The translations under genes were made by a program, and so were the position numbers. A stretch of 64,000 nucleotides of DNA, taken from an uncultured Ignavibacteriales bacterium. Its GTDB lineage: Bacteria > Zixibacteria > MSB-5A5 > GN15 > FEB-12. The notes below the pieces were generated by a model. It did not search any database and was not told the DNA's origin. It was given only the letters and a program-made list of their open reading frames with translations. The stretch spans positions 5,737 to 69,736 of the forward strand of contig CAZFOY010000005.1 in assembly GCA_964520865.1 (NCBI GenBank). Direction: 5' to 3'. Position 1 is the first letter of the stretch, and each line of letters begins with the position of its first letter. Below are positions 1-32,441 of this stretch, one piece after another.

Positions 1-1755
1 GACCTGAATCACACCCGAATCGGTGACGAGGGGCTGGCCCGGAAAGTTCGGATCAGGATTGGTCGACTCCCAGCCGTTGTACAGCCTGACGCCGTATCGT
101 CCGGCCGATGCCGCCGAATCGATCGACATCACCGCATACATAACGGCCGTCGTGTCTTCGACATTGACGACCGGTTCATTATTGAGACCGAACGCGACGA
201 CCCGGATCTCGCCCGGAGTCTGTCCGATATTATCGTACACGACATAATCGGGAATTCGCCCGGTCACCACGAATGAATCGACCGTGAAGAACAGGAAATT
301 ATAAGCGAGGTCAAACTGGATGCCGTAGACTGTTTTCGAAGTAACCAGATTGATCGGGAAGTAGATTCCTTCTTTGCCTCGCAAACCACCAACCGGATGC
401 TGTCCTTCGGCCGACGTTGAGAAGAGGCGATCGTATTCGATCGCTTTGACCGTGATCAAGACGGTAAGGGTATTGGAAGTCCCCCCCTTGTCATCGGTCG
501 CCTGGAATGTCGCGGCGAGAGTGCCGGATTGAGTGAAGTCCGGTGTGAAGCTAAACGTACCGGTCACCGAACCGGATCCGGTGACCTGATTGAAGGTCGC
601 GTTAGCAGGGAGCGAGGTGGCGTTGAGCGTGATTATATCGCCGGCGTCAACGTCGGTTGCCGTAACCGGGAAACTTACCGTCTCTCCCTGGCTTATAGTA
701 AATGGATTGCCGGACACCGCCTGTACCACCGGAGGATTATTGCCCGGAGTCGATCCTACCGTGACGGTCAAATCGACCGTCGACTGGGTCGTCCCGTTCG
801 ATGCCGTCAATCTATAGGTGGTCGTACTGGTGAGCGAAACGCTGGTATTCCCGGCCAGGGTGGTCGTTGAATACACCTGGGCACTGGTCGCGACATTCGT
901 GATTACGATCTGGGTGGCGTTCGATACATCCCACGACAGAGTCGTCTGACCGCCGCCTGCGGCCAAACTGGTAGGATTGGCCGTGAAGCTGTTAATGGTA
1001 GGATTCGCCGCGGCATTCGGATCGATTGTGACTATACCCGAACGAACCGAGAATCGAACGTCCCCTCCAATATCACCGGTCGGATCGCTGTATCGGTTGT
1101 ACTGACATCCGATCGCGAGCGGTGGAAAGACGGTCGTGTCGTAGAGCGTTTGTGAGTAGAACGACACAGTGGTCGAAGTTATTGAGCTTACCGAAGACGA
1201 CAATCGGAAGGGGAGCGAAAAGGCCGTCCCGGCCCCGGAATCTATTGCCGAATATCCGAAATTGATCGGATACATGTATAGAAGTATCCGCTTGTGGTTC
1301 GGGAGAGTGGGTTTCGTATCGTAGTTATCGGCTACGAGCAACACGTACTCCGGACTGAACTGCGAAAGCGGTTTGAGCCTCCCGCCGTTCGGATCATACT
1401 GGTAAAACGTATTGTAATTCGTATCAATGATAGAGTAATACGTAGTGTCCCAGGGGGTCACGGAAGAATCGATAACGTCGACATAATAGGATGTGTCGAT
1501 AGTAGTATCCGTAATCGGGTTAGTCAGGCTGAGCATCGTGCTGTCGAAATCCACGTACAGCTGCATCGCCGATACATCCTTTTCGTTCGTCATATAGATC
1601 GGCACGCTCACTGAGTCGCCCGGTCGTCCGGTCGTCGCCGTGACCCGGACCGTATCGGCTGGCGAAGGCGAGGGACCGCAGTCCTGTCCTCGTGAAACTG
1701 TAGTAAATATCAATGTAATCGCGAGACCCAGTAGCGCTGTCTTTAAGAGCCTCAT
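1..1755 (-). CDS. Secreted multi-module surface protein, N-terminal 585 aa only (C-terminus lies upstream of the window): signal peptide, cohesin-like module, Ig/cadherin-like repeats, second cohesin-like module
   Basis: Absent from the ORF track, apparently because it has no in-window stop. Hand check found no TTA/CTA/TCA at positions congruent to 1 mod 3 between 1 and 1755. ATG at 1755-1753 has GGAGG 6 nt upstream. N-terminus MRLLKTALLGLAITLIFTTVSRGQD is signal-like. GDSVSVPIYMTNEKDVSAMQLYVDFDSTML has the cohesin-like pattern. The last visible segment, ...GEIRVVAFGLNNEPV...GRYGVRLYNGWESTNPDPNFPGQPLVTDSGVIQV, looks like a second one. Confidence 0.75.
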   Translation of the reverse strand, partial: MRLLKTALLGLAITLIFTTVSRGQDCGPSPSPADTVRVTATTGRPGDSVSVPIYMTNEKDVSAMQLYVDFDSTMLSLTNPITDTTIDTSYYVDVIDSSVTPWDTTYYSIIDTNYNTFYQYDPNGGRLKPLSQFSPEYVLLVADNYDTKPTLPNHKRILLYMYPINFGYSAIDSGAGTAFSLPFRLSSSVSSITSTTVSFYSQTLYDTTVFPPLAIGCQYNRYSDPTGDIGGDVRFSVRSGIVTIDPNAAANPTINSFTANPTSLAAGGGQTTLSWDVSNATQIVITNVATSAQVYSTTTLAGNTSVSLTSTTTYRLTASNGTTQSTVDLTVTVGSTPGNNPPVVQAVSGNPFTISQGETVSFPVTATDVDAGDIITLNATSLPANATFNQVTGSGSVTGTFSFTPDFTQSGTLAATFQATDDKGGTSNTLTVLITVKAIEYDRLFSTSAEGQHPVGGLRGKEGIYFPINLVTSKTVYGIQFDLAYNFLFFTVDSFVVTGRIPDYVVYDNIGQTPGEIRVVAFGLNNEPVVNVEDTTAVMYAVMSIDSAASAGRYGVRLYNGWESTNPDPNFPGQPLVTDSGVIQV

Positions 1756-1807
1756 CTATACCTCCGTACTTCACGCATATCTTATTCCTTCACTACTTTC
1801 CCGCCGA

Positions 1808-4273
1808 TCACTTCAGGAGCATCATCTTCCTGGTCGACTGTCCGAAATCGGTTTCGATACGGTACAAATAGACGCCCGAGGCAACCGAGTTACCGCGATC
1901 GTCCTTACCGTCCCACACAACCGAGTGCACACCCGCCGGCAGGTTATCATTTATCAGTATGGAAACTTGTTTTCCGAGTACATTGTAAATCGTGAGCGCA
2001 ACCCGGCTGTTCGACGGCAGTTCGAAATCGATCCGCGTCTCCGGGTTGAACGGATTCGGGTAGTTCTGATGCAGGGTGAAGCTCGAAGGCAGCGAAGCAT
2101 CCTTCGCCAGTGTCGTGGCCATATCCTGACCATCGGCGCTGGCCATGCTCACCGAAGAAACAGCCACATCCTGCAATCCGGTCAGTCTGATCAGCGAGCT
2201 GGATCCGGATGGGAGCGTCTCGCCGTCGAGGCTGTACAGGAGCACCCGAACCTGATCGCCGTCGCGATCGTAGTCGACCGTCATGTTGCCGGTCAGATTT
2301 TCTATATTGTCCGCTCCGAAATCTTCGGAGGTCCGTAAGTTCAGTAAAACCGCGCCAACGGCACAGCCGGACCTGGTCATGACTTCCATCCCATTCCCAT
2401 GAGTCTCCGTACTGATTGACGCGGTCAAGTCTTCGCCTGATAAGGTCTTGGGGCTCGGAGTCGTCCCTGATATGACAATATTAATGAGGGAGACCAGATC
2501 CCCGATCGTCCCGCCTACATTGTCATGATTGACATCCGAATTGGCGCGCTGAAGCGGATTCAGCGGATATTTGATCGGATTCATGAAGAAATTCGTAAAG
2601 TAAATGACATCGCTGATCTCATAAGCCACTCCGTTGAGATTGATGTCGCCGACATTGATTTGTCCCAGGGAGAGTATGTTCACGAACCCGTTGTTGTACG
2701 TAATCGCCGTCTGCGGAATCTTGACGCCGGCTGAATCGGTCATGGTATTGTCGTTGAGCGTGCTGAAATCGAGGAACTGGAAATTTATCGGCGCATACAT
2801 GCCGCTCAGGCTGAGATCCGATGAGAGCGTGTAGCTTATCGTGGCGATCGCGCCGTCTCCCGCGCTCAAAGCGGCAGGCGTTCCGGACATATTCTCGACT
2901 CCCTTGATCCGCACATTGCCCGCAACACTGTTTTCGTCGAGCGTCGTGACGAAATACTCGAATCCGGCGCTGCGTGTCTGCTCATTCGTGATGTTGGTCA
3001 GCAACAGAGCCGACTTGTCGTAGTTGAACAGAATATCGAAAGAGTGCACCGGTAGCTTGTTGTCGAGCAGAAGATGATATTTGATCCTGTTTCCGGGATA
3101 GGCACTCACGGTGTCGAGGCTCAGCGTATATACCGAGGTCGGATTCAAGCGGATCTTCGAATCACTCGTATCGGCGTATCCCTGCGGATCGCTGGCAACG
3201 AACATAATATTGTAGATGCCGGTGTCCGCAAGCGAAGTATGCCAGCTGAGACGTCCCGGGTTGGCGTTATCGAAACTTGCTCCCGGAGGCAGCTCGCCAA
3301 CTTTCCAATGGATCGGCTCAAAATCAGGATCTTCGGCGGTGACTGAGAAGTCGACCATATCGCCGGACTCCGCTACGACAGAGTCGGCCACGGTTATGAC
3401 CGGCCGACGGTTCTTGTTCACCACCGCCACCGATACCGGAGCCTTGACCTGGGTATGGCCGTCGCTGGCCAGCAGGGTGAAGTTGAACGGCGATCCGTCA
3501 GACGAATACGGTCCGACAAAGTCCGGCTTCCACCTGAGCACCGCCGTGCCATCGTGATTGTCCTTGAAATAGACTCCGCTGGGGGCGTTCGAACAACTGA
3601 TTGTCAGGTTGTCACCGTCCGGATCCTTGGCCTTGAAATTCATTACAAGGCTGTCCCCCTCGAACAGGCGCTGCTCCGCAATCGGCTCGATCACCGGAGC
3701 CTGATTGGCGGCCACGACCGTCACTTTTCCAGCGACAAAAGCCGGCTTGATCGCGCGAGCGGTGGAGTTTTCGACGAAAAGCACCTGACCGCCGGGGGGA
3801 TAGAAAGCACTGTCGATCGTGCTGACCGTCCCGGTAGCAGCAGTCTTGGCAACGCCGAATACCACACTGCAGACCTGGCCGGTGCCCGGAGCGATCGGTT
3901 CCTCGAGAATGGTGAAAAACGTGACGAGGAATTTCCCCGAAGCAGTAGATGGATCTGACGGATTTATCAGTTTGTTGGCAATATAGGAACCCCGTGATTC
4001 GCTGAAGCTGATTGATTTCAGCTTAAGGACCGAAGTATCGTAGGCGATCGGTATTGACAGCGAGCTCACCGGTTCGTCATTCTCCATGTTGATTTTCACC
4101 ACTACATCCTGCCCGGGAGCAGCTGTGACTGAGTCGAGGTACAATCGGTCGAGCTGACCGAACGGGTCAGACTGGGCCGAGACCGAAAAGGGCAGACTCA
4201 GGATCAGTAAAACAGCGTAGAGTACTGCAAAGTACTTTATTGTTAAGTTCTTTGGTTCTCGTAAGTATACCAT
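1808..4273 (-). CDS. Secreted cohesin-like / cadherin-like x2 / cohesin-like / dockerin-like protein with T9SS C-terminal sorting domain
   Basis: ORF track 1808..4312. I prefer the ATG at 4273 (MVYLREPKNLTIKYFAVLYAVLLILSLPFSVSAQ, signal peptide) over the TTG at 4312. Cohesin-like: VTAAPGQDVVVKINMENDEPVSSLSIPIAYDTSVLKLKSISF. Dockerin-like two-repeat segment: DINLNGVAYEISDVIYF...DVNHDNVGGTIGDLVSLINIV. C-terminus: FTLHQNYPNPFNPETRIDFELP...GVYLYRIETDFGQSTRKMMLLK (T9SS type A CTD pattern). Confidence 0.88.
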   Translation of the reverse strand: MVYLREPKNLTIKYFAVLYAVLLILSLPFSVSAQSDPFGQLDRLYLDSVTAAPGQDVVVKINMENDEPVSSLSIPIAYDTSVLKLKSISFSESRGSYIANKLINPSDPSTASGKFLVTFFTILEEPIAPGTGQVCSVVFGVAKTAATGTVSTIDSAFYPPGGQVLFVENSTARAIKPAFVAGKVTVVAANQAPVIEPIAEQRLFEGDSLVMNFKAKDPDGDNLTISCSNAPSGVYFKDNHDGTAVLRWKPDFVGPYSSDGSPFNFTLLASDGHTQVKAPVSVAVVNKNRRPVITVADSVVAESGDMVDFSVTAEDPDFEPIHWKVGELPPGASFDNANPGRLSWHTSLADTGIYNIMFVASDPQGYADTSDSKIRLNPTSVYTLSLDTVSAYPGNRIKYHLLLDNKLPVHSFDILFNYDKSALLLTNITNEQTRSAGFEYFVTTLDENSVAGNVRIKGVENMSGTPAALSAGDGAIATISYTLSSDLSLSGMYAPINFQFLDFSTLNDNTMTDSAGVKIPQTAITYNNGFVNILSLGQINVGDINLNGVAYEISDVIYFTNFFMNPIKYPLNPLQRANSDVNHDNVGGTIGDLVSLINIVISGTTPSPKTLSGEDLTASISTETHGNGMEVMTRSGCAVGAVLLNLRTSEDFGADNIENLTGNMTVDYDRDGDQVRVLLYSLDGETLPSGSSSLIRLTGLQDVAVSSVSMASADGQDMATTLAKDASLPSSFTLHQNYPNPFNPETRIDFELPSNSRVALTIYNVLGKQVSILINDNLPAGVHSVVWDGKDDRGNSVASGVYLYRIETDFGQSTRKMMLLK

Positions 4274-4731
4274 GACAGACTCTTCTCGTGCAATTCCCAG
4301 ACCAATAGCCAACTTTCTTTGAGCAGACTCCAGCCGACCGCACAGGCGATCATCCTTGCTCGAAGCTACTCTGTCTGTAACCGTTAAATCCGTTTAATGG
4401 TCTGTATAATAGTGACTTACACGTCCACAACGTAGTCGATACCAATCAGGCTATGACATTCCCCCCGTTGATTGGAACGCGAAGTGAGAAGAGAGAGAGA
4501 TAGTATGTTGAGAACTTCGAAGTCGAACTATGCAATCCCGCAACACGGTGCATAACAGTCAAATTTCTTGGAAAGGCTTCCTTAATCCTTTCGCTGGCGA
4601 CCTCGCGAAGAAACATCCTGTTTCCTGTCAAGTTATCGTGGGTCATTTTGTAGTTCCGGGATTCAGCATGTTAACTACTTATCTACCAAATTCTTAACAA
4701 TCAAGTGCCCGCTCGTGGCGGGGTAAGTAAT

Positions 4732-4761
4732 CCCCGGAAAGGGGGTTAACCCTTTCCGGGG
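4732..4761 (-). terminator. Perfect 12-bp-stem hairpin 20 nt downstream of the 4781..7369 gene (candidate intrinsic terminator)
   Basis: ccccggaaaggg (4732-4743), loop ggttaa, ccctttccgggg (4750-4761). The trailing sequence on the minus strand is ATTACTTACCC, only weakly U-rich. Confidence 0.5.
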
Positions 4762-4780
4762 TAAAAGTAAACCGATCAGG

Positions 4781-7369
4781 TTACTTCAGGAGGACCATCT
4801 TCTTGGTTTCGCTGAAGTTGTTGGCAGTCAACTTGTAGAAGTAGACGCCGGAAGCCTGAGCGGAAGCATCCCAACTGAATGAGTGCTCACCAGCTTCGAA
4901 CGAACCGTCGAAGGTCTTGACCAGCTGACCAGCTATGTTGTAGATGGACAGGCTGACCTGAGCCTTGACCGGCAGGCTGAAGCCGATGGTGGTCGTCGGG
5001 TTGAACGGGTTCGGGTAGTTCTGAGCCAGGCTGAAGTTAGCCGGGAGCAGTTTCGCGTTAACCGTCGCACCGTCGACCGAAGCGAACTCGGAGCTAATGA
5101 CGTTGCCATTGGCACTGAGGACGTTACCGTTGAAGGTGTTACCTTCCATGCTGAAGACCAGAGCGTGAGTCACGTTGGCTTCGCGATCGAAGGCATACTT
5201 CAGTTCCATGTTATCCGCATGGAGTACCGGGGTGACATCACCCTGGTAGGTCACGAGAGCGGCACCAACCGTACCGTTGACCACGACATTGCCGCCGTCA
5301 GCAGTATAGGTGATCGACGCCGGGGCGAGCTTCGGATAAGGAAGCGCGTCACCCTGGATGACACGAATCAGGTAGACCAGGTCGGCAACCGACAGGGTAA
5401 GACCGTCATTGTTGACATCGGTGGCGGCAATCTGTCCCTGGAGATTGATGTGGAAAACACCAATACCATAGACAAAATAGTTGGAGAAGAGAACCGCATC
5501 CGCGATTTCATACTTCACGTTGTTCAGGTTGATATCACCACGAGCGTCGATCGAGTCGGAGCAAGCGATGTTGATGCAACCGTTCTGGAAGCTGACCGCG
5601 GGATACGCAGTCTTCGCGCCGGAACCGCAAGTACCATCCTGCGGACCCTGGTAGGTCGGATAACCGACGGTACCGTCGATGATGTCAATACCGTTCGGCG
5701 GGTTTAGCGAAGCATCGCCGGTATAAATATGCTCGGCGATAAGCAGGCTGTCACCAGAGGCGGTGGAAAGGGCATTGTCGCCGCAATCCAGCCAGAAGAA
5801 CCGAATCGGAATGACCTGGCACTGGAAGGTGCGGTCGTTGGTAACCAGGAAGTCGAGATTGAACAGCGTGGACGGTTTCGGATCAGCCTCGAAGCAGGAC
5901 GGATGATTCGGACCATTGTTCGTCTCGGCAATCGCAGTCACACGGAGCAAGCCACTCGGGCAGGAGCCGGAGCAGTTACCATCGGCGCCGTAACGATAGG
6001 TGAAATATTCCCATCCGCAACCAGCCGGACCCCAATCGTCACCGATGGAGGCGGTCTGGAAGGACAGCGCAGAGTTATCATAAGCGATCAGCATGTCGTA
6101 ACCACCGATCGGACCACCCTGGGCGGCCAACTGGACCGGAACGATTACGTGCTGACCCTGGAAGACAAAGTTGCCGGACTGGTCGCCAACGCAAGGAATA
6201 ACGACCTGATACTGCGAACCAATGATGACTGTCACGTCGAATGTGCAAGTCGACGACAGATTGCCATCAGAGCCTTCGACAGTGATCGGCCAGGTGCCAC
6301 CGGTCTGACCGGCGTTGAGATGGATAGTTCCATTCGGATCAACGGTAACCGCGTTTCCAGCATCTGCGGCTAAGAAAGCAGCGGCATCACTCAGCGTGAA
6401 GGTAACCGGATCGCAATCGTCGGTAGCCGTAGCGCTGACTGTTGCGCCAGTGCCGTTGGACATGCTGACGTCACCCGGGCAGGTCACAACCGGAGCTTCG
6501 TTGGTGAAGTTCAGGTTGACTGTCGAAACTGCGGAGTTGCAACCGGCACCGGTAGCAACGATATCAACGCTTACAGAAGCACCGACATCAGCCAGGGTGG
6601 GCGAGTAGGACCACACACCGTTGGCGTCGATGGTACCGATAGAGGCCGTCCAGCCCGTGATCGGGTTCGGCGGAGTCTGCGGCGTGACTTCATGAGCGTC
6701 GAAATCAAAAGTCATGACATCGCAGTGGCTTCCGGTAAGGGAAGTCGGAGCATTGTCGATGACCGGGGGCTGGCACGGAGGAACGCCTGCGATATAGCAG
6801 TACGGGCCGCCCCATTCCGGAGCTTCACTGGGGTTTCCACCACCGGGAGCCCAAACCCAAGCATGGTTCGGCTTGGCCCAGGTGGAGTCGATACAAAGAG
6901 TCTCGCCTTCGGCAATGTTACCGGTGGCGATAGTCACTGAAGGAGCATCAAAACCGATCGGAAGACCATAACCGGTGCTTTTTGCACCGCCGACGCCGAC
7001 CGTGTCAGCACCAGCGCCGTCGTTGGCGCCGTAGCCGCTCGTGAAAGCAAAGATCAGCGCGAAGTGGTCGCCGGTTGTCCAGCCACCGCCGTCGGAACCT
7101 GGCCAGGGAAGAGTATCAATCACGGGAATCGTGAATGAACCGCCACCCATGGTGTAGACTTTCCAGGCGTTGTCAATACCACCGATCGTGTAAGGACGAT
7201 CGTTGGTATAACGCATCGTGAAGACCACCGGCGCGCCCGCGATAATCGAATCCGGGGTGCCGTAGGTGCTCGTCACGTTGTCTACTGAGATGCTCACGGC
7301 ATTGGCAAGCCCAAATGAAACGACTAAAGATGCCAGTACCAGGAAAAATGAAATACGTTTCATTTTCAT
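4781..7369 (-). CDS. Secreted Ig-like / cohesin-like / dockerin-like protein with T9SS C-terminal sorting domain
   Basis: MKMKRISFFLVLASLVVSFGLANA signal peptide, with AGGAG upstream (start may be the second ATG at 7363). Cohesin-like: QYQVVIPCVGDQSGNFVFQGQHVIVPVQLAAQGGPIGGYDMLIAYDNSALSF. Dockerin-like: DINLNNVKYEIADAVLF...DVNNDGLTLSVADLVYLIRVI (about nt 5345-5545). CTD: FSLAQNYPNPFNPTTTIGFSLP...GVYFYKLTANNFSETKKMVLLK. Confidence 0.9.
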   Translation of the reverse strand: MKMKRISFFLVLASLVVSFGLANAVSISVDNVTSTYGTPDSIIAGAPVVFTMRYTNDRPYTIGGIDNAWKVYTMGGGSFTIPVIDTLPWPGSDGGGWTTGDHFALIFAFTSGYGANDGAGADTVGVGGAKSTGYGLPIGFDAPSVTIATGNIAEGETLCIDSTWAKPNHAWVWAPGGGNPSEAPEWGGPYCYIAGVPPCQPPVIDNAPTSLTGSHCDVMTFDFDAHEVTPQTPPNPITGWTASIGTIDANGVWSYSPTLADVGASVSVDIVATGAGCNSAVSTVNLNFTNEAPVVTCPGDVSMSNGTGATVSATATDDCDPVTFTLSDAAAFLAADAGNAVTVDPNGTIHLNAGQTGGTWPITVEGSDGNLSSTCTFDVTVIIGSQYQVVIPCVGDQSGNFVFQGQHVIVPVQLAAQGGPIGGYDMLIAYDNSALSFQTASIGDDWGPAGCGWEYFTYRYGADGNCSGSCPSGLLRVTAIAETNNGPNHPSCFEADPKPSTLFNLDFLVTNDRTFQCQVIPIRFFWLDCGDNALSTASGDSLLIAEHIYTGDASLNPPNGIDIIDGTVGYPTYQGPQDGTCGSGAKTAYPAVSFQNGCINIACSDSIDARGDINLNNVKYEIADAVLFSNYFVYGIGVFHINLQGQIAATDVNNDGLTLSVADLVYLIRVIQGDALPYPKLAPASITYTADGGNVVVNGTVGAALVTYQGDVTPVLHADNMELKYAFDREANVTHALVFSMEGNTFNGNVLSANGNVISSEFASVDGATVNAKLLPANFSLAQNYPNPFNPTTTIGFSLPVKAQVSLSIYNIAGQLVKTFDGSFEAGEHSFSWDASAQASGVYFYKLTANNFSETKKMVLLK

Positions 7370-7688
7370 CTCCTAATTACTTCGTTATCAAATATTGATG
7401 TAACTTTGACGGCTAACTTCAGACTCTTTTCCCCCTCATTGTCGTGGTGAATCGTCCGTGGGCGAGAGCCAACAAGCCTCGGGAAAATTTCGTACGACCA
7501 GGTTAAGAGCGAGTTAACAGTCCGTTCATTTGAGCGCGCGTTATTCACCCTTCTTTTAAACGTCCTCCTTTCCACTTTTTTGTCGTTAACAGGTTTTGTC
7601 GCTTACAGGCGACACTTCTTCTTGTTTATTCTCACTATTTTCAATTCGAGCAGTATTTTCGACGTGTAAAATGTGCGTTAATCGTCCG

Positions 7689-8630
7689 TCACATACAGTT
7701 ATTGGGACAGATGGCCGCACCGACGCCAAACATATAGTCGACCATCGCAATCACATCGCTGATATCCACCGTACCATCGCAGTTCACATCCCCGCTCAGG
7801 AACGGATCGGGGGCCGGCCCGGAGCCGAACATATATTCAACGAGATAGATCAAATCGCTGATGTCGACATTCTGGCCGGCATCACCGTCGATATTTCCAC
7901 AGGTATAGGCCGGCGGCTCCAGCACCGTGAGCGAACCATCATACACCTTCACATGAGCAGTATCCAGAACGGCAACCTGGATCGTGTCAATGCTCGTGGA
8001 ATCGCACGGTCCAAATGTGACGTGCACCCAGTTGACGCAAACATCCCCTATCCAGCCCTCACACAGATAGCAGTTGGTGTCGGGACGGTTCTCCTGAATC
8101 CAGGGGATGGAGGTTCCATCGGGGCGTGAGAGACTGAAATGGTCCTTGAAATCGGTCTGAACCAGGATATTCACGGTTCGTCGGGTGGTCGTGTCGGGCA
8201 TGTCCATCACATTGGCGAGAACTTTGATCAGCAGACCGCCCTGTTGTGGGGCTATGCCGCCGGGGCTGGCGAGATAGTGGGCGAGTCCGAATATATTCAA
8301 ATCACGGTTGGTACCTGAAATCGATGTCCCGCGGACGATATCCCATCCTCCGCAGAGGGTGCCTACAGTGTCGAGCAAGGTGTCGAGGGTCATAATGTCG
8401 GGAACGTCGAGCTGGAGCCAGAGATTGAACGCGGCTACCGTGTCGACCAGATTATCCAGATATATTGCTATGATCGAACCCTGCGTGCCGGAGGGCGCGG
8501 TCGTATCGGACACTTTTACAACTATATTCGGTATGCCGGCATGTGCGGGAGCCGAAAACGCCACAAGCGAAATCAGCACAACGAAGAAAACGAGAGAAAC
8601 GGTTTTAAGGGACGTACGGCAGAAAGTCAT
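7689..8630 (-). CDS. Secreted cohesin-like + C-terminal dockerin-like protein without T9SS sorting domain
   Basis: ORF track 7689..8681. The ATG at 8630 has AGGAGGAG 4-5 nt upstream and gives MTFCRTSLKTVSLVFFVVLISLVAFSAPAHA. Cohesin-like: IVVKVSDTTAPSGTQGSIIAIYLDNLVDTVAAFNLWLQLD. Dockerin-like: NIDGDAGQNVDISDLIYLVEYMF...DVNCDGTVDISDVIAMVDYMF. The protein ends ICPNNCM with no QNYPNPFNP-type tail. Confidence 0.85.
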   Translation of the reverse strand: MTFCRTSLKTVSLVFFVVLISLVAFSAPAHAGIPNIVVKVSDTTAPSGTQGSIIAIYLDNLVDTVAAFNLWLQLDVPDIMTLDTLLDTVGTLCGGWDIVRGTSISGTNRDLNIFGLAHYLASPGGIAPQQGGLLIKVLANVMDMPDTTTRRTVNILVQTDFKDHFSLSRPDGTSIPWIQENRPDTNCYLCEGWIGDVCVNWVHVTFGPCDSTSIDTIQVAVLDTAHVKVYDGSLTVLEPPAYTCGNIDGDAGQNVDISDLIYLVEYMFGSGPAPDPFLSGDVNCDGTVDISDVIAMVDYMFGVGAAICPNNCM

Positions 8631-9407
8631 AATCTCCTCCTGAAGGATCCGAGATGTTTTCAATATCAATCCCTTAGCCAAGCCTCTATAACATACTCCT
8701 GCGATAGACAGCGTCTATACAATACACGTAACGATGAAGTTTTTTGATTTTTAGCTTATTAGCTGTTGTACCAACTGTGTACCTGCTTGTAAATCTTAAG
8801 CCGCCCCCACAGCGGTCTTAAGAAAGAAGTATTTACAAAGACAGAGTTGCTCGGAAAGAGGTGACCCACGCGGGGTCAGTGTTGTTAAACTTTCTGGGTA
8901 GTGAACCTATCATCCGAGCAGAATATATGGCCTAAGGGTCCGATTGTCAATAGAAAAAAGGCAGTTTATTTCGCGGACTCCTGCCAGCGAAGATGTCATT
9001 CCTCCACGATTCGTATTAAAGAAGATCGCTTCGCACACATCCCCGTGTCGGCCGTTGTCAACCGGTGCGGTGCGCGAAGTCGTACTTGCTCCTTCAGCCT
9101 GTCCTGCAAGCAATATGCCGATTTGACCTGAACGCCCGGGAGTAATGTCGATGCGTCGGTCAATCTCCTCTGAGGTAACTGCTTGGCTGCCATCGCAAGC
9201 CGTAAAAGGGCGATTGAGTAAACCGACAAAGATGGAAACGATTCCGAGAGGTGCAGCTCTCAATGTGCAGGCTGATACACAATACGGTCGGACCTTCGAC
9301 GAGGACAATAAGAAGCGGTCTGCAAACTGTTCGAATTTTGCACATGCCGGAGACGGTCAGGCCGGATTTTCCTGCAAATTACGCCCCGGTTTTTTAGTTT
9401 GACATTC

Positions 9408-12000: not shown

Positions 12001-13566
12001 ATGGGCTGCCGCCTTATTTTCGCATTGGCGGTTTGGGGTGTGATGTCCGGCACCACTTGGGCTTCGCTGGGGTTGACACCTGAAAACTCGGTCATAATTC
12101 CGGAGATTACCGGCAACGTCCGCCAGGTTGGAATCGCCGACCTCGATCATGACGGGATCCTCGATCTGCTCGTCTGTGACAATCGGACAATCGTTGTCTA
12201 TTCGGTCGGCAGGGGATCAATCATCTTTCAATTTCATCTCGAATCGGATCCGCTCGATGTCGAGTTTCTTCTGGCCGATGTCAACGCCGACAGCATTCCT
12301 GATCTGGTCATCGGGCAGTACCTTGACTACCTACAAAAACCGCCGGATACGGTCTGCCGGATAGATCTGTTCGACGGCGCATCCGGCTTCGCTGGGCACG
12401 ATTCATGCTTCTATACAGCGAACCGCACTACTCCTGCGTCCTTTGGCGAACCGTTTCCATCGGTGGCACTGTCAGCTGGAGACTACGACGGCGATGGATT
12501 CAACGAACTCCGGGTGGCGTATCACCGGTACCAAACTCTAAACTTTTTTGGCACTGCTCGATTCAACAGTATCGGCGAAACGAGAACTTATCAGTCCTTC
12601 CCGACTTCGCCGCTCGACTCTATGCCGAGCTGCACCGATGCTCCTGTTCTCCTACGTACGGAAGATGGCCGTACACTTCAAGCAGTGACGAGGTATGAGG
12701 CTTCCGTGACCGCCGTCCCTTCGTCGGCAGAATACTCAACCACTCTGAGGTCTATGGTAGATGTCGTGAATGGTTCGGGGATGGCAGTAGCGACACTCGA
12801 AGATCACAGCAGCATGCCGTGCGTATCGGATTCGACTGAGCTGATAAGTATGTACCGGGCAGCAGAGGCAGGTAATCTGTATTCTTCGGACACGACCACC
12901 TCCGACTTACTGATCGATTACCGCGCCGCTTATCGCTGCTTCTCCGATGGTGCGGCCACTTTTGATTCCACCGAGCACACTTATCAGCTTTATCATCTTG
13001 ATGAATCTGACTCGCTGTTGTTTGTTCGGGAGATCCCGGACCTGGACGGCCTGGCGTGTCCGAAGTATCTCAAAGCGTATCCCCAGCAGTTGTTCGCCTT
13101 TGGTCGAAGCAGCGTCTATCAGGTTACGCCGCTCACGGGAAGTCTCGAGTCAATCGGCATTCTCCCCGACGTTGACACGATCTTGTGGAACAGCGGAACT
13201 GCGAATGCCGATTGCTTTGTCGTCGGAGTAAAGGGGAGCAAGATCGCCTGGCATCGAATCGATGAAGTGACCGATGTTCAAGATATCCCGGAAAACCTGC
13301 CTGACGGATTCGAGTTGGGGCGGATCTATCCCAACCCGTTCAACGCCGTGGTCACAATCCCGGTAACAATACCCCGGTCCGGACAGCTTTCCCTTGAGGT
13401 CTTCAATGTTCTGGGGCAATGCTTATATTCAATCGTGGACTCAAAGCAAGAGGCCGGAAGCAGGCTGTTCCGATGGGATGCGGGGAAATTCAGTTCAGGA
13501 GTCTACTTCGTTCGCGCGACGTTCGAAGGTCAGACCCGCACAACAAGAGCTGTCCTGCTCAAGTAA
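12001..13566 (+). CDS. Secreted FG-GAP/VCBS-repeat protein with T9SS C-terminal sorting domain
   Basis: Signal peptide MGCRLIFALAVWGVMSGTTWA. FG-GAP-like motifs: GIADLDHDGILDLLV, LLADVNADSIPDLVIG, AGDYDGDGFNELRV. CTD: FELGRIYPNPFNAVVTIPVTIP...GVYFVRATFEGQTRTTRAVLLK. Confidence 0.85.
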   Translation: MGCRLIFALAVWGVMSGTTWASLGLTPENSVIIPEITGNVRQVGIADLDHDGILDLLVCDNRTIVVYSVGRGSIIFQFHLESDPLDVEFLLADVNADSIPDLVIGQYLDYLQKPPDTVCRIDLFDGASGFAGHDSCFYTANRTTPASFGEPFPSVALSAGDYDGDGFNELRVAYHRYQTLNFFGTARFNSIGETRTYQSFPTSPLDSMPSCTDAPVLLRTEDGRTLQAVTRYEASVTAVPSSAEYSTTLRSMVDVVNGSGMAVATLEDHSSMPCVSDSTELISMYRAAEAGNLYSSDTTTSDLLIDYRAAYRCFSDGAATFDSTEHTYQLYHLDESDSLLFVREIPDLDGLACPKYLKAYPQQLFAFGRSSVYQVTPLTGSLESIGILPDVDTILWNSGTANADCFVVGVKGSKIAWHRIDEVTDVQDIPENLPDGFELGRIYPNPFNAVVTIPVTIPRSGQLSLEVFNVLGQCLYSIVDSKQEAGSRLFRWDAGKFSSGVYFVRATFEGQTRTTRAVLLK

Positions 13567-28137: not shown

Positions 28138-29538
28138 TCAGACGTCTGAGCCGGTCCGGAGCGACGCCTGCTCCGTACGGGCGAAGAGGAAGAACAGGGC
28201 GAGTGAGAGAGCGAGGCCCGGGAAGATCGGTTGGATTCCGAACCAGTAGCCACCCCCCGAAGTCAGGTGCTTGCTCAAATACCAGATCAGGGCAATTCCT
28301 CCGCTCCCGGCGATAGAGATGAGCGCGGCGGTCGAAGGAAGACGGCGCTTCCCCACGAACGAGAAGAAGACCGGCACCAGAAGGGCTGGCGTGCCGATCG
28401 TCCCGAACAGGTACCAGATCTGGACGATCGAGCGAAATTTGAGAACGAGCAAAACGGCCACCACCGTAGTAACCACCAGACCGATCCGGGTATAGCGGGT
28501 CACCTTGTCTTCGGAGATCGGAAAAAGGCGCATGACGATATCCCGGCTGAAGGTCGAAGCGGCGATGAAGGCGTACGAGTCAATGGTAGACATGACGGTC
28601 GCCAGAAGAGCCAGGGCGAACAGCCCCAGCAAGCCGGGTGGCAGCACTTTCAAGGCAAGCGCCGGATACGACCCGACTGGGTTGGCCAGATCGGGAAGGA
28701 TCGCCCGGGCATATAAACCGCAGAAAGTTGTCATAAAATCGAAAAAGGCCCAGAAGGCAATCGAAATGAGAATACCGTTGCGGGCAACCTTAATATCTTT
28801 CGCCGCATAGCACCGTTGATAGAAAGCCGGCTCTATTAATGTGGCGAGGGCGATGAAATACCAGGAGATGATATACCATTTTGAATTGCCGCCGTTCCAG
28901 GTGAAGAGATCAGACGGAACATGGTCGATCAGATACGAGATACCGCCGTATTTCGATACGAGCAAGATCAGTAAGGCGGCGAACCCGAGGAACATCAGCA
29001 CGAACTGAAAGAGATCGGTCCTCACTACCGACTTGAATCCTCCGGTGTAGACGTAGACGACCGAAAATAGTGTCCCGGCCAGAATCCCCTGCCAGAATTG
29101 CCAGCCGAAGAGATACTGCGTCAAGGTTCCAATGCCGAGGATATAGGCGGCGGGGACGGTCATGAAATAAATGATGACCGACCCGGCGAGGGCGGTCTTG
29201 TTGTCGTAAGCACGGGCGAGTTGATCGGGGATAGTGAGAAGCTGCGAGTCGCGCGCTTTCTTCGCGAGGTACAGTGCGAACAAGAAGGCAGCCAGATAGT
29301 ACGGCAGTCCGAACACCAGCCAGTTGGACAAACCGAACCGGTAGCTGTACTCACCGACGCCGAGGATCCCACCGTACCAGGTGGAAACGAGCGATGCCAC
29401 GAATCCGGGCATGGTGAGCGCCCGGCCGCCGAGGATCAGCTCGGCGGCCGATTCATCACGGCGCGTGCTCTTGATCAGTCCCAGGACAAGCAGGACGACC
29501 AGATAGACAATGATCAGGCTGTAGTCAATCCAGTGCAT
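28138..29538 (-). CDS. Sodium:solute symporter family (SSF) transporter, co-transcribed with the riboswitch-controlled receptor
   Basis: About 13 predicted TM helices with SSF-like blocks (GGRALTMPGFVASLVSTWYGGILGVGE...). The start is 6 nt after the receptor stop. Confidence 0.8.
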   Translation of the reverse strand: MHWIDYSLIIVYLVVLLVLGLIKSTRRDESAAELILGGRALTMPGFVASLVSTWYGGILGVGEYSYRFGLSNWLVFGLPYYLAAFLFALYLAKKARDSQLLTIPDQLARAYDNKTALAGSVIIYFMTVPAAYILGIGTLTQYLFGWQFWQGILAGTLFSVVYVYTGGFKSVVRTDLFQFVLMFLGFAALLILLVSKYGGISYLIDHVPSDLFTWNGGNSKWYIISWYFIALATLIEPAFYQRCYAAKDIKVARNGILISIAFWAFFDFMTTFCGLYARAILPDLANPVGSYPALALKVLPPGLLGLFALALLATVMSTIDSYAFIAASTFSRDIVMRLFPISEDKVTRYTRIGLVVTTVVAVLLVLKFRSIVQIWYLFGTIGTPALLVPVFFSFVGKRRLPSTAALISIAGSGGIALIWYLSKHLTSGGGYWFGIQPIFPGLALSLALFFLFARTEQASLRTGSDV

Positions 29539-29544
29539 GGAAGG

Positions 29545-32091
29545 CTAAAACAGCTCCAGCTTGAGTTGGCCGTAGAACGATCGGGTTGACGCAATGTAAT
29601 ACTCCGCCCATCCGTCGACAACCGTTCTGCCATTGTCGTCGTAGGCGAAATCACCGCCGTAGCCCGAAGTCTCGAACTTCTTGTCGAACAGATTGTCGAT
29701 CTTCCCTTCGAACACCAAATTCCCCGCACCGAGCAGATTGCCGATCGTATACGACGCTGATATGGCCGAGACGGTGAATGGATCTACCGCGAGACTCTCT
29801 ACATTCCAGAGTTCGGCGTACTGCTTGCCGGCGTACCTCAGGCGATAGGTAACGCGCGCCCGGCCCGTCTTGTAGTCGAGAAGCACATTTCCGAGATAAT
29901 CGGGAAAGAACGGAATCGTTTTGTCTTTGTAGTCGACACTGAATCCATCGACATCGGCTACAAAATCCCTCACCCGATTGTAGCTGTAAGCGAAGTTAGT
30001 GCTCACCGTGAACTTCGGATTGAACTGATACGCTCCATTCAGCTCAACTCCCGCGTGCACCGAGCGCTTCGCATTGATCGTTATAGCAATACCGGTGTTC
30101 GGATTGATTCCGCCGTACGGCAGGATTTCGTTCTTGAACTCCATCCAGTAGAAATTGACGCCCAACGAATATCTTCCCGGTCGGTAGTTGCTCCCCAACT
30201 CCAGATCGTAAACGCGCTCCGATTTCGCTGTCGGATCTCCAAATTGGTATGTTGTTACTCCGTTTGAAACGGTAGAGTCGAGAATGGTCAGCGAAGGGAC
30301 CACGCTCGGATCGCCGGCGTCATAAATGGCGGCATCGCTTGGCGTGCGGGATGCTATCGAGAAGTTGGTATAGAGATTGAGGGCGTCATTGCAGGCATAG
30401 TTGAATCCGATTCGTGGCGAGAAGAACGCCCAGTTGACATTATATTTGTATCCGGGGAACGGAAGCATCCGCTCCTGGTCGAAATCGTATTTTAGGAATC
30501 TGAACTGTGCCGTCACCTGCGTGCTCAGCTTGTCGTTGAACTTGTAGTACTCCTGACCGTAGATGGAGCCGACATACTTCTTCCCGTTGTACTGATAATA
30601 TCTGTGGCGCGGATCGAGCGACCCGGTGACATGCTCGGCGTACACCACCTGTCCCCAGTGATCTGAATTGAAATAGTAGAAAGAACCTCCGATAGAGTGT
30701 TTCCCTCGGCTCCAGATCATGTCCAGTCGGGGATTCCAGCCGGTCTGATTCTTGTTCACCCACTGCTGACGAACGACATTGCCGGAATCGTACGGCATCG
30801 AAGTCGCGGGGTTGATATCGATGTACGTGCTGTCGATACCGTAGTCTGATAACGCGCTATTCGCCTTCAGCTGCTCGTAGTAGCCGTCGCCATGGATATG
30901 GTAGAGGGTATTGTAGAGTGTGATGCGATCGGTTAAGCGATATGTATTTTGCAACTGATAGTGGGGCTGATTGAAATTGTCCGTCTCGTTGTCGTAGGTC
31001 AGCGGATTGTAGCGATAGTCTTTCGCAATCTCATCGCGCGGCGCACCGTAATACGCCAGGTGCATACGCATCGGGCCGCCGTAGACGTACAGCTCGGTCG
31101 TCATCCTCGGATCGAGGCGGGCGAGCGAGAAATAGTACGACCAACCGTCATACCAGCTGTCGTGGCGAAATCCCCCCGTGCGTTGTTTGGAGAACCGTCC
31201 GCCGAATTGCCAGGTCCCGTTGATGAGACCGGACGAGTACTCGACCGACTGCTTGTACATATCGCTAATTCGATTGCCGTTGAATGTATAGTCGCCGTAG
31301 CCGGAGACAATCGAAGCTTCGCGCTGGTTGCTCAGTGCGCTGGTAACAATGTTGACCGTCCCGCCGAACGAAGCATCGCCGTAGAGCGAATTCCCCACCC
31401 CGCGCTGGATCTGAATATCTGAGACGTTGGCGGCGAAATCGGGCAGATCGACAAAATAGGTGGCCTGGTCTTCCGGATCGTTCAGCGGCACGCCGTTGAT
31501 GTACGTCACGATCCGCTTGTCATCAAATCCGCGGATCTTCATGTAGCTGTAGCCGAGCGAAGATCCGGCGTCGGAATAGGCATACAGGTTCGGCGTCGAT
31601 TCGAGAAGAAGCGGGAATTCATCGACCGTGTAGTCACGCTTGATATCATCCTGAGAGAAATTGTCGAATGCGATCGGGGTGATCCCTTCTTCGGCCCGGT
31701 CTGAGCGCACGAGAATGTCCTGACCGCGGTAGTATCGTGGCTGAAGAACGACGAGACTCGGTACTTTGGTCAGCTCGAATTGTTTCGAGAGGAAGCCGAC
31801 CGAAGAAAACGTAAGGCGCGAGACACCTTCGGGCAAAGACAGCGAATACTTGCCGTTTGCATCGGTGATCGTACCGACGCCGGAGAGATTGGTGACGACC
31901 GAGGCTCCGACAATCGGATCTCCATTTTGATCGGCGACAGTGCCGGTGGCTGTTTCAGTTGCGCGTGCGGCCCCGACAAGAAGGAGCAAAGCGACAATTG
32001 GGAGGCAGAATTGGACAATGAATCTCATTCGAATCGCTCGAACGAGTGCGGAATCGAGCGGTCTGCTCGACTGTGAGAGTTTGTGGGTCAT
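29545..32091 (-). CDS. TonB-dependent outer-membrane receptor with N-terminal carboxypeptidase-regulatory-like domain
   Basis: GTVADQNGDPIVGASVV...GKYSLSLPEG (CarbopepD_reg-like). Plug: IRGFDDKRIVTYINGVPLNDPE...IQRGVGNSLYGDASFGGTVNI. Barrel ending ...YGQLKLELF. GAGG 9 nt before the ATG at 32091. Confidence 0.92.
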   Translation of the reverse strand: MTHKLSQSSRPLDSALVRAIRMRFIVQFCLPIVALLLLVGAARATETATGTVADQNGDPIVGASVVTNLSGVGTITDANGKYSLSLPEGVSRLTFSSVGFLSKQFELTKVPSLVVLQPRYYRGQDILVRSDRAEEGITPIAFDNFSQDDIKRDYTVDEFPLLLESTPNLYAYSDAGSSLGYSYMKIRGFDDKRIVTYINGVPLNDPEDQATYFVDLPDFAANVSDIQIQRGVGNSLYGDASFGGTVNIVTSALSNQREASIVSGYGDYTFNGNRISDMYKQSVEYSSGLINGTWQFGGRFSKQRTGGFRHDSWYDGWSYYFSLARLDPRMTTELYVYGGPMRMHLAYYGAPRDEIAKDYRYNPLTYDNETDNFNQPHYQLQNTYRLTDRITLYNTLYHIHGDGYYEQLKANSALSDYGIDSTYIDINPATSMPYDSGNVVRQQWVNKNQTGWNPRLDMIWSRGKHSIGGSFYYFNSDHWGQVVYAEHVTGSLDPRHRYYQYNGKKYVGSIYGQEYYKFNDKLSTQVTAQFRFLKYDFDQERMLPFPGYKYNVNWAFFSPRIGFNYACNDALNLYTNFSIASRTPSDAAIYDAGDPSVVPSLTILDSTVSNGVTTYQFGDPTAKSERVYDLELGSNYRPGRYSLGVNFYWMEFKNEILPYGGINPNTGIAITINAKRSVHAGVELNGAYQFNPKFTVSTNFAYSYNRVRDFVADVDGFSVDYKDKTIPFFPDYLGNVLLDYKTGRARVTYRLRYAGKQYAELWNVESLAVDPFTVSAISASYTIGNLLGAGNLVFEGKIDNLFDKKFETSGYGGDFAYDDNGRTVVDGWAEYYIASTRSFYGQLKLELF

Positions 32092-32189
32092 GACAGTAAC
32101 CTCGCTTAGAACGCTTCAGGGTTAAGCAAGATTCCGTCCTGAATCGATAGGTCGGCCAGATACTGGCTCAGGGGATGCGGTTGACATCT

Positions 32190-32270
32190 CCGTTTCCCTA
32201 CGCCGGTATTATCCGGATCAGGTCGAGGGGGTATGATCTCAGGCGGTCGTTATTACGCCACCCCCAACGG
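32190..32270 (-). promoter_or_regulatory. TPP (THI-box) riboswitch aptamer
   Basis: Minus-strand RNA: CCGUUGGGGGUGGCGUAAUAACGACCGCCUGAGAUCAUACCCCCUCGACCUGAUCCGGAUAAUACCGGCGUAGGGAAACGG. It contains the conserved GGGGUG, CUGAGA, ACCC, ACCUGAUC-GGAUAAU-CC-GCGUAGGGAA blocks and a closing P1 (CCGUU/AACGG), about 98 nt upstream of the receptor ATG. Confidence 0.9.
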
Positions 32271-32441
32271 AATTTGTGTTTCTGGGAATAATTACGGCCC
32301 GGCCCGACGGAAAGGCAAGGGGAAAATGCAGGATCCCGATCACTCAGCAGATCGTTTTGGCATGCCCCGAGCCGGCCTATGATTCGGTGAGACGATACGT
32401 ATAGTAGATAGTATCCGAGAATAGACACCAGGAGGTCGGAT

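Follow-up and report, generated by a model that had tools for sequence, protein, structure and literature searches.

The window analyzed here, a stretch of 64,000 nucleotides from contig CAZFOY010000005.1 (assembly GCA_964520865.1) of an uncultured bacterium of the Zixibacteria lineage, opens with four consecutive minus-strand open reading frames (ORFs), which we call G1 to G4 and which encode signal-peptide proteins containing cohesin and dockerin modules (Table 1). A first-pass annotation, made from the letters of the sequence alone, had placed four minus-strand genes here; ORFs were found at exactly those coordinates, and all of the peptide segments that it quoted are present in them. For G4 and G2, its start codons are preferred over longer, TTG-initiated ORFs because orthologues start at the same methionines (MTF... 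in G4 and MVYL... in G2). Plus-strand antisense ORFs overlapping the four genes are without support, and the signal peptides were judged by eye and from N-terminal helices in AlphaFold models. Among natural protein “plug and socket” parts, cohesin-dockerin pairs are the best known. Non-cellulosomal cohesin/dockerin proteins were reportedly described by Peer et al. in 2009, and AF2375 carries a cohesin and a dockerin on one chain; to our knowledge, next to nothing is known of the role of these modules outside cellulose degradation.

Cohesins, dockerins, and secretion tails in four adjacent genes

As judged from their sequences, G1, G2, and G3 are tandem paralogues with one architecture: a signal peptide, an N-terminal cohesin (a divergent N domain in G3), two immunoglobulin (Ig) domains, a cohesin, a dockerin, a beta-sandwich that we call X, and a type IX secretion tail. 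In local profile-profile comparison, the whole C-terminal half is common to G2 and G3, with hhalign values of 99.4% for the cohesin, 99.5% for the dockerin, and 98.7% for X; the second and first Ig domains reach 97.2% and 91.3%. The window ends within G1, and the full gene was read from a JGI contig (L084) that is identical in DNA to window positions 1-8700, together with a Logan contig (L085) carrying an identical G2. Full-length G1 has 890 amino acids (aa) and continues after cohesin 2 with a dockerin, a cohesin-like X, and a secretion tail (L085 positions 3267-5939; PF18962 at 28.3 bits, cut-off 27). With full-length G1 included, a dockerin is present in every one of the four proteins and a secretion tail in three. 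The first-pass annotation had counted dockerins in three of the four proteins and two type IX tails: the dockerins it named are borne out by profiles and the tails of G2 and G3 score above cut-offs, and it is the counts that fall short, the G1 dockerin lying outside the window. Only 24 bp downstream of G1 begins a gene for a further signal-peptide protein of at least 1,898 aa, with at least 20 tandem Big_9/He_PIG repeats. Giant proteins retrieved in the search of representative sequences were rejected as orthologues of this gene product, with which they have only Ig repeats in common.

The first-pass annotation had seen a cohesin in each of the four proteins. All are supported: those of G1 and G2 by Pfam, that of G3 by family profiles, and that of G4 by AlphaFold with Foldseek. 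Measured against the gathering score of 24.1 for Pfam Cohesin (PF00963), whole G2 scores 59.3 bits and partial G1 32.9 bits, each over two stretches, and full G1 scores 56.8 bits; G3 itself has no match, and G4 has none above the gathering score. Cohesin 2 of G2 resembles cohesin 1 (hhalign 98.5%), and in a G2 orthologue a weak Pfam Cohesin match falls after the Ig domains, at the position of cohesin 2. Among the G3 orthologues, 25 of 56 match Pfam Cohesin at E<=0.1. A G3-cohesin profile built from 22 diverse sequences matched nothing but cohesins in the PDB (21 of 21 matches, the best being 5lxv_A with E 8.1e-5, and including CipA cohesins of C. thermocellum and the cohesin of Archaeoglobus fulgidus), with the alignment covering mainly the first ~60 residues. 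The full-length G3 family profile had no cohesin or dockerin match in the PDB; those found for G3 came only from isolated-module profiles built on more diverse sequences. The G3 cohesin gives hhalign values of 99.2-99.4% with cohesin 2 of G2, and it carries a Cys-rich insertion, nearly invariant in G3-type cohesins, that neither G2 cohesin 2 nor canonical cohesins have. The N domain of G3 is possibly a degenerate cohesin: it aligns with the C-terminal part of G2 cohesin 1 at 92.5% in hhalign, over 59 columns only, and in another locus (L012) it stands alone fused to a secretion tail.

For G4, the evidence is structural. Its AlphaFold model, from a 57-sequence alignment, has a predicted local distance difference test (pLDDT) score of 89.6 and a predicted template modeling (pTM) score of 0.70, and consists of a beta-sandwich (residues 36-237) followed by three helices. 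All of the top 50 Foldseek matches in the PDB are cohesins (best 6kgc_A, E 1e-8, TM 0.82), the A. fulgidus cohesin 2xdh is superposed by the model with a TM of 0.81 and a root mean square deviation of 2.7 A, and hhalign links the G4 cohesin to G2 cohesin 2 at 95.9%.

The dockerins are of more than one type. That of G4 lies at the extreme C-terminus, where two F-hand repeats with Ca loops of 14 and 12 residues are flanked by Cys244 and Cys312, two columns that are near-invariant among orthologues; the type is recognizable by the motif D-I-x-D-L-x-Y-L-V-x-Y-M-F-x-G-G-P with conserved cysteines on either side. With Pfam Dockerin_1 (PF00404), G4 scores 16.4 bits, below the gathering score of 22.9, and 21 of 57 G4 orthologues match, at best with E 3.7e-7. 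The G4 family profile found 21 chains in the PDB, all of them dockerin modules or dockerin-bearing enzymes (best 5lxv_B, E 6.7e-5). The dockerin of full G1 scores 18.0 bits against the same Pfam model and E 2e-6 against a local hidden Markov model (HMM) of the G4 type, and has two 12-residue loops, the second degenerate. For the internal dockerins of G2 and G3, a profile of 52 sequences, one of them the G2 module, retrieved type I dockerins as its top 12 matches in the PDB; the best, 5nrk_B (E 2.5e-5), aligns over both repeats with one extra residue per Ca loop. At positions 1, 3, and 5 of the Ca loops, D or N is invariant or nearly so, as is the final D. The G2 dockerin alone matches 5m2o_B in phmmer with E 0.035, and gives an hhalign value of 95.9% with the G4 dockerin. 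When all six frames of the window were scanned with a regular expression, the Ca-loop motif turned up only in G2, G3, G4, and one FG-GAP protein, and the motifs are therefore not background. Thus, a lack of significant cohesin or dockerin profile matches, which the first-pass annotation had named as the result that would overturn its reading, was looked for, and significant matches to both were found.

No catalytic domain was found in G1-G4 by scans with Pfam and TIGRFAM-type profiles that included full G1, as the first-pass annotation had held, and the same scans found no glycoside hydrolase (GH) or carbohydrate-binding module (CBM) domain. Nor did they find a type IX sorting domain in G4.

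Table 1. Features of the cohesin/dockerin operon and its upstream region, in window coordinates
Feature	Positions	Strand	Content or evidence
G1, first 585 of 890 aa	1..1755	-	signal peptide, cohesin 1, Ig-like, Big_9, cohesin 2
G1 cohesin 2, residues 440-585	1..438	-	second Pfam Cohesin stretch; sequence pattern; reaches window edge
G1 Big_9 Ig domain	451..741	-	Pfam
G1 cohesin 1, residues ~33-245	1021..1659	-	best Pfam stretch residues 36-94; hhalign ~93% to G2 cohesins
G2, 821 aa	1808..4273	-	signal peptide, cohesin 1, two Ig domains, cohesin 2, dockerin, X, secretion tail
G2 type IX type A C-terminal sorting domain	1811..2077	-	TIGR04183 38 bits (cut-off 23)
G2 X beta-sandwich	2078..2440	-	hhalign; weak link (68%) to G1 X
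G2 internal dockerin, residues ~538-612	2438..2662	-	loops DINLNGVAYEISD and DVNHDNVGGTIGD
G2 cohesin 2, residues ~378-540	2654..3142	-	second Pfam Cohesin stretch
G2 tandem Ig domains (Big_9 / He_PIG)	3140..3721	-	Pfam
G2 cohesin 1, residues ~36-185	3719..4168	-	N-terminal, no dockerin after it; best Pfam stretch residues 46-155
Intergenic spacer, 507 bp	4274-4780		unusually long
G3, 862 aa	4781..7369	-	signal peptide, N domain, two Ig domains, cohesin, dockerin, X, type IX secretion tail
G3 type IX type A C-terminal sorting domain	4784..5038	-	TIGR04183 57 bits (cut-off 23); PF18962 44.6 (cut-off 27)
G3 X beta-sandwich, residues 682-778	5036..5326	-	AlphaFold; hhalign to G2 X
G3 internal dockerin, residues 604-682	5324..5560	-	13-residue Ca loops DINLNNVKYEIAD and DVNNDGLTLSVAD
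G3 cohesin, residues 385-604	5558..6217	-	family profiles
Cys-rich insertion in G3-type cohesin, residues ~452-490	5900-6010		CGWEYFTYRYG..C...CPSGLLRV..AETNNGPNHP
G3 tandem Ig-like (Big_9/cadherin-like) domains, residues 200-385	6215..6772	-	
G3 N-terminal beta domain, residues 25-200	6770..7297	-	AlphaFold, all-beta
Intergenic spacer, 319 bp	7370-7688		unusually long
G4, 313 aa	7689..8630	-	signal peptide, one cohesin, C-terminal dockerin
G4 terminal dockerin, residues ~243-313	7692..7904	-	two F-hand repeats, Cys-flanked
G4 cohesin, residues ~33-240	7911..8534	-	AlphaFold and Foldseek
Structured 5' leader, ~290 nt	8631..8921	-	conserved motifs and per-lineage folding
Promoter-like site	8922..8950	-	TTGACA, 17 nt, TATATT; 11/12 consensus matches; sigma-70-like

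A proposed assembly of the proteins at the cell surface

We posit that these genes encode an enzyme-free, type IX-anchored surface scaffold of cohesins and dockerins, in which terminal dockerins are received by cohesins, and we give this reading an even chance of being right; the binding between modules and its specificity, the export route, the anchoring, and the orientation on the cell are what we infer from sequence. The host has an outer membrane, because TonB-dependent receptors are encoded in the window. In this model, G1-G3 would take the Sec pathway followed by type IX secretion; the sorting domain at the C-terminus would then be cut off and the end left behind attached to the outer membrane, a processing that is established for type IX secretion in Porphyromonas (PMC8545088, PMC4804311). 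X, dockerin, and cohesin would then lie near the membrane, with the Ig stalk and the N-terminal cohesin pointing outward, and Ca-dependent cohesin-dockerin contacts would link the surface proteins non-covalently. We predict that G4, through its terminal dockerin, would plug into cohesins on the anchored proteins, that subtilases and other enzymes with a G4-type dockerin, encoded elsewhere in Zixibacterial genomes, would dock likewise, and that the membrane-proximal cohesin-dockerin-X units could cross-link neighboring anchored proteins or stiffen the base of each.

How general is the cohesin-dockerin-X unit? With the G3 dockerin module as query, a HMMER search of 1.84 billion representatives returned 1,333 clusters (at 50% identity) with E<=1e-3, and the architecture was mapped with local HMMs on the best 142 proteins of these. 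They contain 209 internal dockerins; a G3-type cohesin stands directly before 161 of them (median gap 2 aa) and X follows 153 (median gap 7 aa), with one to four units per protein. Could the dockerin, then, be locked in place? It is conceivable that the internal dockerin of G1-G3 serves as a Ca-binding hub, clamped by X and by the cohesin of the same chain, such that the duplicated F-hand uses two faces, the unit forms a rigid adhesin base, no intermolecular network exists, and at most the G4-type dockerin is a true plug. The contiguity of the units suits this arrangement, as do the invariance of the residues at the junctions of the G3 dockerin (D608, R610, G673, D674, and K680) and the repetition of units within a protein, which resembles that of structural repeats. 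Pfam moreover scores G1 X, between dockerin and tail in the region of residues 652-800, as a Cohesin (residues 682-776), so that the G1 dockerin may be flanked by two cohesin-derived sandwiches. The N-terminal parts also look like those of adhesins: among 34 unit-bearing proteins scanned with Pfam, there are Ig, HYR, PKD, SBBP, and Laminin_G domains and no catalytic, GH, or CBM domain. However, the AlphaFold model of G3, from a 56-sequence alignment, does not pack the dockerin confidently on its neighbors, one class of proteins has dockerin-X repeats with no cohesin ahead of them, and the hhalign links that would tie X to cohesins by way of G1 are weak for G2 X (68%) and G3 X (<1%). We consider the clamped arrangement, the main rival to the anchored scaffold, somewhat unlikely. 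Mean-field direct coupling analysis, tried as a source of cohesin-dockerin contacts (255 units, ~205 effective, 383 columns), was underpowered, and its top pairs were gap or register artefacts.

The C-termini of the same 142 proteins fall into exclusive classes: a secretion tail closes 102 of them and a G4-type dockerin 29, and no protein combines the two endings. By analogy, these two endings parallel the anchored and the docked components of cellulosomes. Conservation within the G3 family is highest in the internal dockerin, where 55% of columns are >=90% conserved, compared with 37% in the secretion tail and 28% in the cohesin; such conservation of an embedded dockerin fits what would be expected of a constrained interface. 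These data also bear on whether the anchored proteins might simply bind one another. Because the unit directly precedes the secretion tail, the units of all anchored molecules would stand at equal height above the membrane, and binding in trans could build an S-layer-like lattice or fibrils of structural or protective function. This self-assembling coat would account for the placement of the unit before the tail in 102 of the 142 proteins, giants of ~3,000 aa among them, for a dockerin that is highly conserved over paralogues and orthologues as if one type of partner were common to many, and for several paralogues being encoded in one operon. In contrast, linkers of 2-7 residues leave its steric feasibility in question, and the dockerins at the ends of enzymes suggest that display is at least part of the function. 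We think a coat of this kind unlikely.

The synteny in related genomes that the first-pass annotation had raised is borne out, the order of the locus being kept across Zixibacteria. There are at least 519 homologues of G3, which among the 120 listed have mostly 95-100% coverage and 41-56% identity, with three closer; named homologues are nearly all from Zixibacteria or GN15, with a few labeled as Calditrichaeota, FCB group, Phycisphaerae, or simply “bacterium,” and the 90% cluster of G4 has a member annotated as candidate division Zixibacteria. A scan of contigs with the G3 alignment was dominated by the secretion-tail motif QNYPNPFN, with ~10 of 80 loci useful. The gene order G4-G3-G1-giant Ig-repeat gene is kept in five loci (L001, L003, L007, L086, and L087), in three of them (L001, L086, and L087) at ~43% protein identity; G2 is an additional paralogue in the lineage of the window, being found there, in L003, and in L007.

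Further dockerin-bearing proteins, which the first-pass annotation had envisaged as possible cargo, were likewise found in related Zixibacteria, in the form of enzymes with a G4-type dockerin. Across other Zixibacterial loci and metagenomic proteins, this dockerin terminates two Peptidase_S8 proteins, a glucose/sorbosone-dehydrogenase (GSDH)-like protein, a DUF1028 Ntn-hydrolase, and a metallo-beta-lactamase-fold protein, and no GH or CBM is present among the dockerin-bearing enzymes sampled. In one locus (L005), a gene for a protein with HYR, a cohesin-dockerin-X unit, and a secretion tail lies between those for the dehydrogenase and one subtilase. Gene clusters whose products have G4-type dockerin C-termini were seen at L012 2-9537 and L005 809-11060; they encode two subtilases, a GSDH-like protein, a BNR protein, and an Ig-repeat protein, and genes for secretion-tail proteins adjoin. 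From their gene content, the two clusters are possible cargo loci of the same system. The arrangement is different in L089 7977-14935 (Zixibacteria CP070766.1): ahead of a protein of 1,644 aa come two small Dockerin_1 proteins, of 195 and 378 aa, and the large protein has three cohesin-dockerin units, a fourth internal dockerin, and, in place of a secretion tail, a terminal dockerin.

Is mutual recognition between the modules needed at all? It may be that the proteins are plain adhesins whose cohesin-like folds bind, for example, glycans or minerals and whose dockerin-like segments are Ca-dependent stabilizers. Non-cellulosomal cohesin and dockerin modules are widespread and mostly uncharacterized (PMC9012536), the Cys-rich insertion of the G3-type cohesin is strongly conserved, and Ig/cadherin-like stalks and a giant Ig-repeat neighbor are typical of adhesins. 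However, cohesin and dockerin co-occur far above chance in the same proteins and loci, the terminal dockerin behaves as a movable tag that recurs on enzymes unrelated to one another, a pattern hard to account for if there is no receptor, and secretion tail and terminal dockerin exclude each other at the C-terminus. In light of these points, we regard plain adhesins as very unlikely.

Several observations weigh against the anchored scaffold that we favor. Pfam Dockerin_1 does not match G2 or G3 at E<=1, and the Ca loops of these two proteins are one residue longer than the canonical 12, with the final D at position 13. The internal dockerin is the sole region of the G3 model with a pLDDT below 50, and because AlphaFold is unconfident there, the contacts of this dockerin are not predicted. 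A near-linkerless dockerin between cohesin and X suits a fixed intramolecular unit at least equally well. The enzymes proposed as cargo have no secretion tail, hence no known route across the outer membrane, and G4, likewise tail-less, would from its sequence have no evident way across that membrane either. In the 64 kb window, there is no dockerin-bearing enzyme, the candidate cargo coming from other Zixibacterial genomes, and no type IX machinery gene among the ORFs scanned. That the internal dockerin combines the highest conservation in its family with the lowest model confidence is a contrast for which we have no explanation.

Known cohesin-dockerin systems

The nearest points of reference are the clostridial and ruminococcal cellulosomes (cohesin-dockerin types I, II, and III; scaffoldins CipA and ScaA-E). 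Like these, the locus has homologous cohesin and dockerin modules, anchored non-catalytic proteins with several cohesins, and duplicated F-hand dockerins at the extreme C-terminus of enzymes. A dockerin beside an X sandwich recalls X-dockerin dyads, with the difference that X here comes after the dockerin and not before it. The differences extend further: the host is diderm, and a type IX tail takes the place of SLH domains or sortase; no GH or CBM was found; most dockerins lie within the chain, joined directly to a cohesin on one side and to X on the other; Ca loops of the G2/G3 type have 13 residues; and the candidate cargo consists of proteases and oxidoreductase-like enzymes. Thus, the locus is homologous in its modules to the cellulosome, but it is no cellulosome.

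A closer relative in silico is the cellulosome-like complex of Candidatus Stygibacter (Cloacimonadota), for which non-cellulolytic polymer degradation has been proposed (PMC8542988). Its scaffoldin is one 3,755-aa protein with tandem cohesins, CBM2/CBM3, and a conserved C-terminal attachment domain, and its enzymes, including S8 peptidases, have a signal peptide and C-terminal dockerins (PMC8542988). Both systems belong to bacteria of the FCB group, the superphylum that includes Fibrobacteres, Chlorobi, and Bacteroidetes, and pair cohesin proteins that have a C-terminal domain for surface attachment with dockerin-bearing candidate enzymes. In contrast to that single scaffoldin, the present locus has three paralogues of 820-890 aa with internal dockerins, along with a small cohesin-dockerin protein, and no CBM. 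The first-pass annotation had considered a type IX-anchored cohesin-dockerin scaffold to be without experimental description; this stands, as we found none in the literature searched, with the qualification that a type IX-anchored scaffoldin with dockerin-bearing enzymes had already been proposed in silico for Cloacimonadota (PMC8542988). Neither the cohesin-dockerin-X unit nor the conserved operon is described for the Ca. Stygibacter complex.

Cohesins and dockerins also occur outside cellulosomes in archaea, in anaerobic methanotrophic (ANME) archaea in some proteins on one polypeptide, and in A. fulgidus (PMC9012536), where the proteins are AF2375/AF2376. The G4 model superposes on the A. 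fulgidus structure 2xdh, and in both cases, cohesin and dockerin occur outside cellulose degradation; unlike the Zixibacterial proteins, the archaeal ones have no type IX secretion, no fixed cohesin-dockerin-X unit, and no conserved multi-paralogue operon. From the other side, G1-G3 resemble type A cargo of type IX secretion (gingipains, SprB-like adhesins, and GhpA) in their C-terminal TIGR04183/PF18962 domain, in their Ig-like stalks, and in the giant repeat protein of the operon; they differ in their cohesin-dockerin modules, for which we found no experimental report in such cargo in the titles and abstracts of the literature retrieved. Literature on cohesin, dockerin, and type IX secretion together likewise held no experimental scaffold, as judged from titles and abstracts. 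A literature search gave no link between dockerins and Zixibacteria, and among the top matches on Zixibacteria, Ignavibacteria, Calditrichaeota, and KSB1 there was no mention of dockerins.

A compact operon that is conserved across a phylum and combines three dockerin flavors with ~8 cohesin-like modules is a tractable test case, and more than 1,300 clusters with the fused cohesin-dockerin-X unit suggest importance by their scale alone. If the proposed assembly is true, it would tell us how an uncultured phylum of the FCB group organizes its cell surface, and it would mean that a bacterium with an outer membrane displays enzymes, notably proteases, non-covalently on type IX-anchored proteins. 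The locus is also a possible source of new orthogonal cohesin-dockerin pairs for protein engineering.

Promoter-like site, candidate leader RNA, and genomic surroundings

The region upstream of G4 is a separate lead, as it contains a candidate regulatory element. Both hexamers of the promoter-like site are invariant in five other Zixibacterial loci that were aligned (L003, L004, L001, L086, and L087), in four of which the proteins are only ~40-55% identical to those of the window. Over ~370 nt upstream of G4, conservation exceeds that of the coding sequence: the window and L003 are nearly identical there, and their G4 proteins are 75% identical. The leader is ~290-410 nt long in the loci where it was recognized (the window, L001, L003, L004, L086, L087, L090, L091, L094, and L096-L099). 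Two of its motifs, CnCGGAUGAURGGU and UUCCGA(G), are invariant and can pair as a helix, P1; the remainder comprises a variable hairpin P2, AUACUUC, a two-tier hairpin P3, ACAGG, GGCUAAGG, and the ribosome-binding site AGGAGGA. The two hairpins hold their position while their sequence varies, and P3 folds at the same place from different sequences in 11 lineages (z -1.3 to -4.5). When the leaders were aligned with MAFFT and folded with RNAalifold, helix P1 alone was recovered, because an aligner that uses sequence only misaligns the hairpins, and per-lineage folding was used instead. A pattern scan of metagenome contigs for the leader gave 10 loci, in which all readable copies precede a G4 orthologue, and the core motif occurs once per locus and nowhere else in the 1.45 Mb scanned. 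An Rfam search of the leader gave no match at E<=1. We propose that it is a candidate new cis-regulatory RNA.

A bolder extension of the scaffold model would join these elements into a two-tier surface-display system, one without a characterized counterpart. Here the portable cohesin-dockerin-X unit would make anchored proteins cross-linkable, the canonical, disulfide-closed dockerin would tag tail-less enzymes, proteases among them, for the surface through capture by cohesins and perhaps through type IX co-export (“piggy-backing”), and the leader, acting as a riboswitch or processive antiterminator, would control the whole operon, which measures at least 15 kb between the start of G4 and the point where the identical contig ends. 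We speculate to this extent knowing that the combination as a whole is decidedly improbable.

The spacers within the operon reach ~800 bp in relatives, and an Rfam search of them gave no match; the 56-aa ORFs that gene callers place there are spurious, since they are not conserved. The remainder of the window is housekeeping chromosome (YidC, MnmE, MnmG, UvrA, and Fpg), and a mobile-element or phage origin of the locus is therefore unlikely. At 3.4 kb from the operon lies a gene for an FG-GAP repeat protein with a type IX secretion tail (12001-13566, plus strand), which is kept at the same position in the closest relative, L003, and which from its domains is probably a further surface protein of the neighborhood. 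A thiamine pyrophosphate (TPP) riboswitch (32178-32275, minus strand, 74 bits) directly precedes a gene for a TonB-dependent receptor (29545-32091), and a sodium:solute symporter gene (28138-29538) is also downstream of it; the combination suggests thiamine-regulated uptake across both membranes. Elsewhere in the window, a minus-strand gene (50008-51993) encodes a 661-aa protein in which six HEAT repeats are joined to a C-terminal cyclophilin-type peptidyl-prolyl isomerase, an uncommon fusion.

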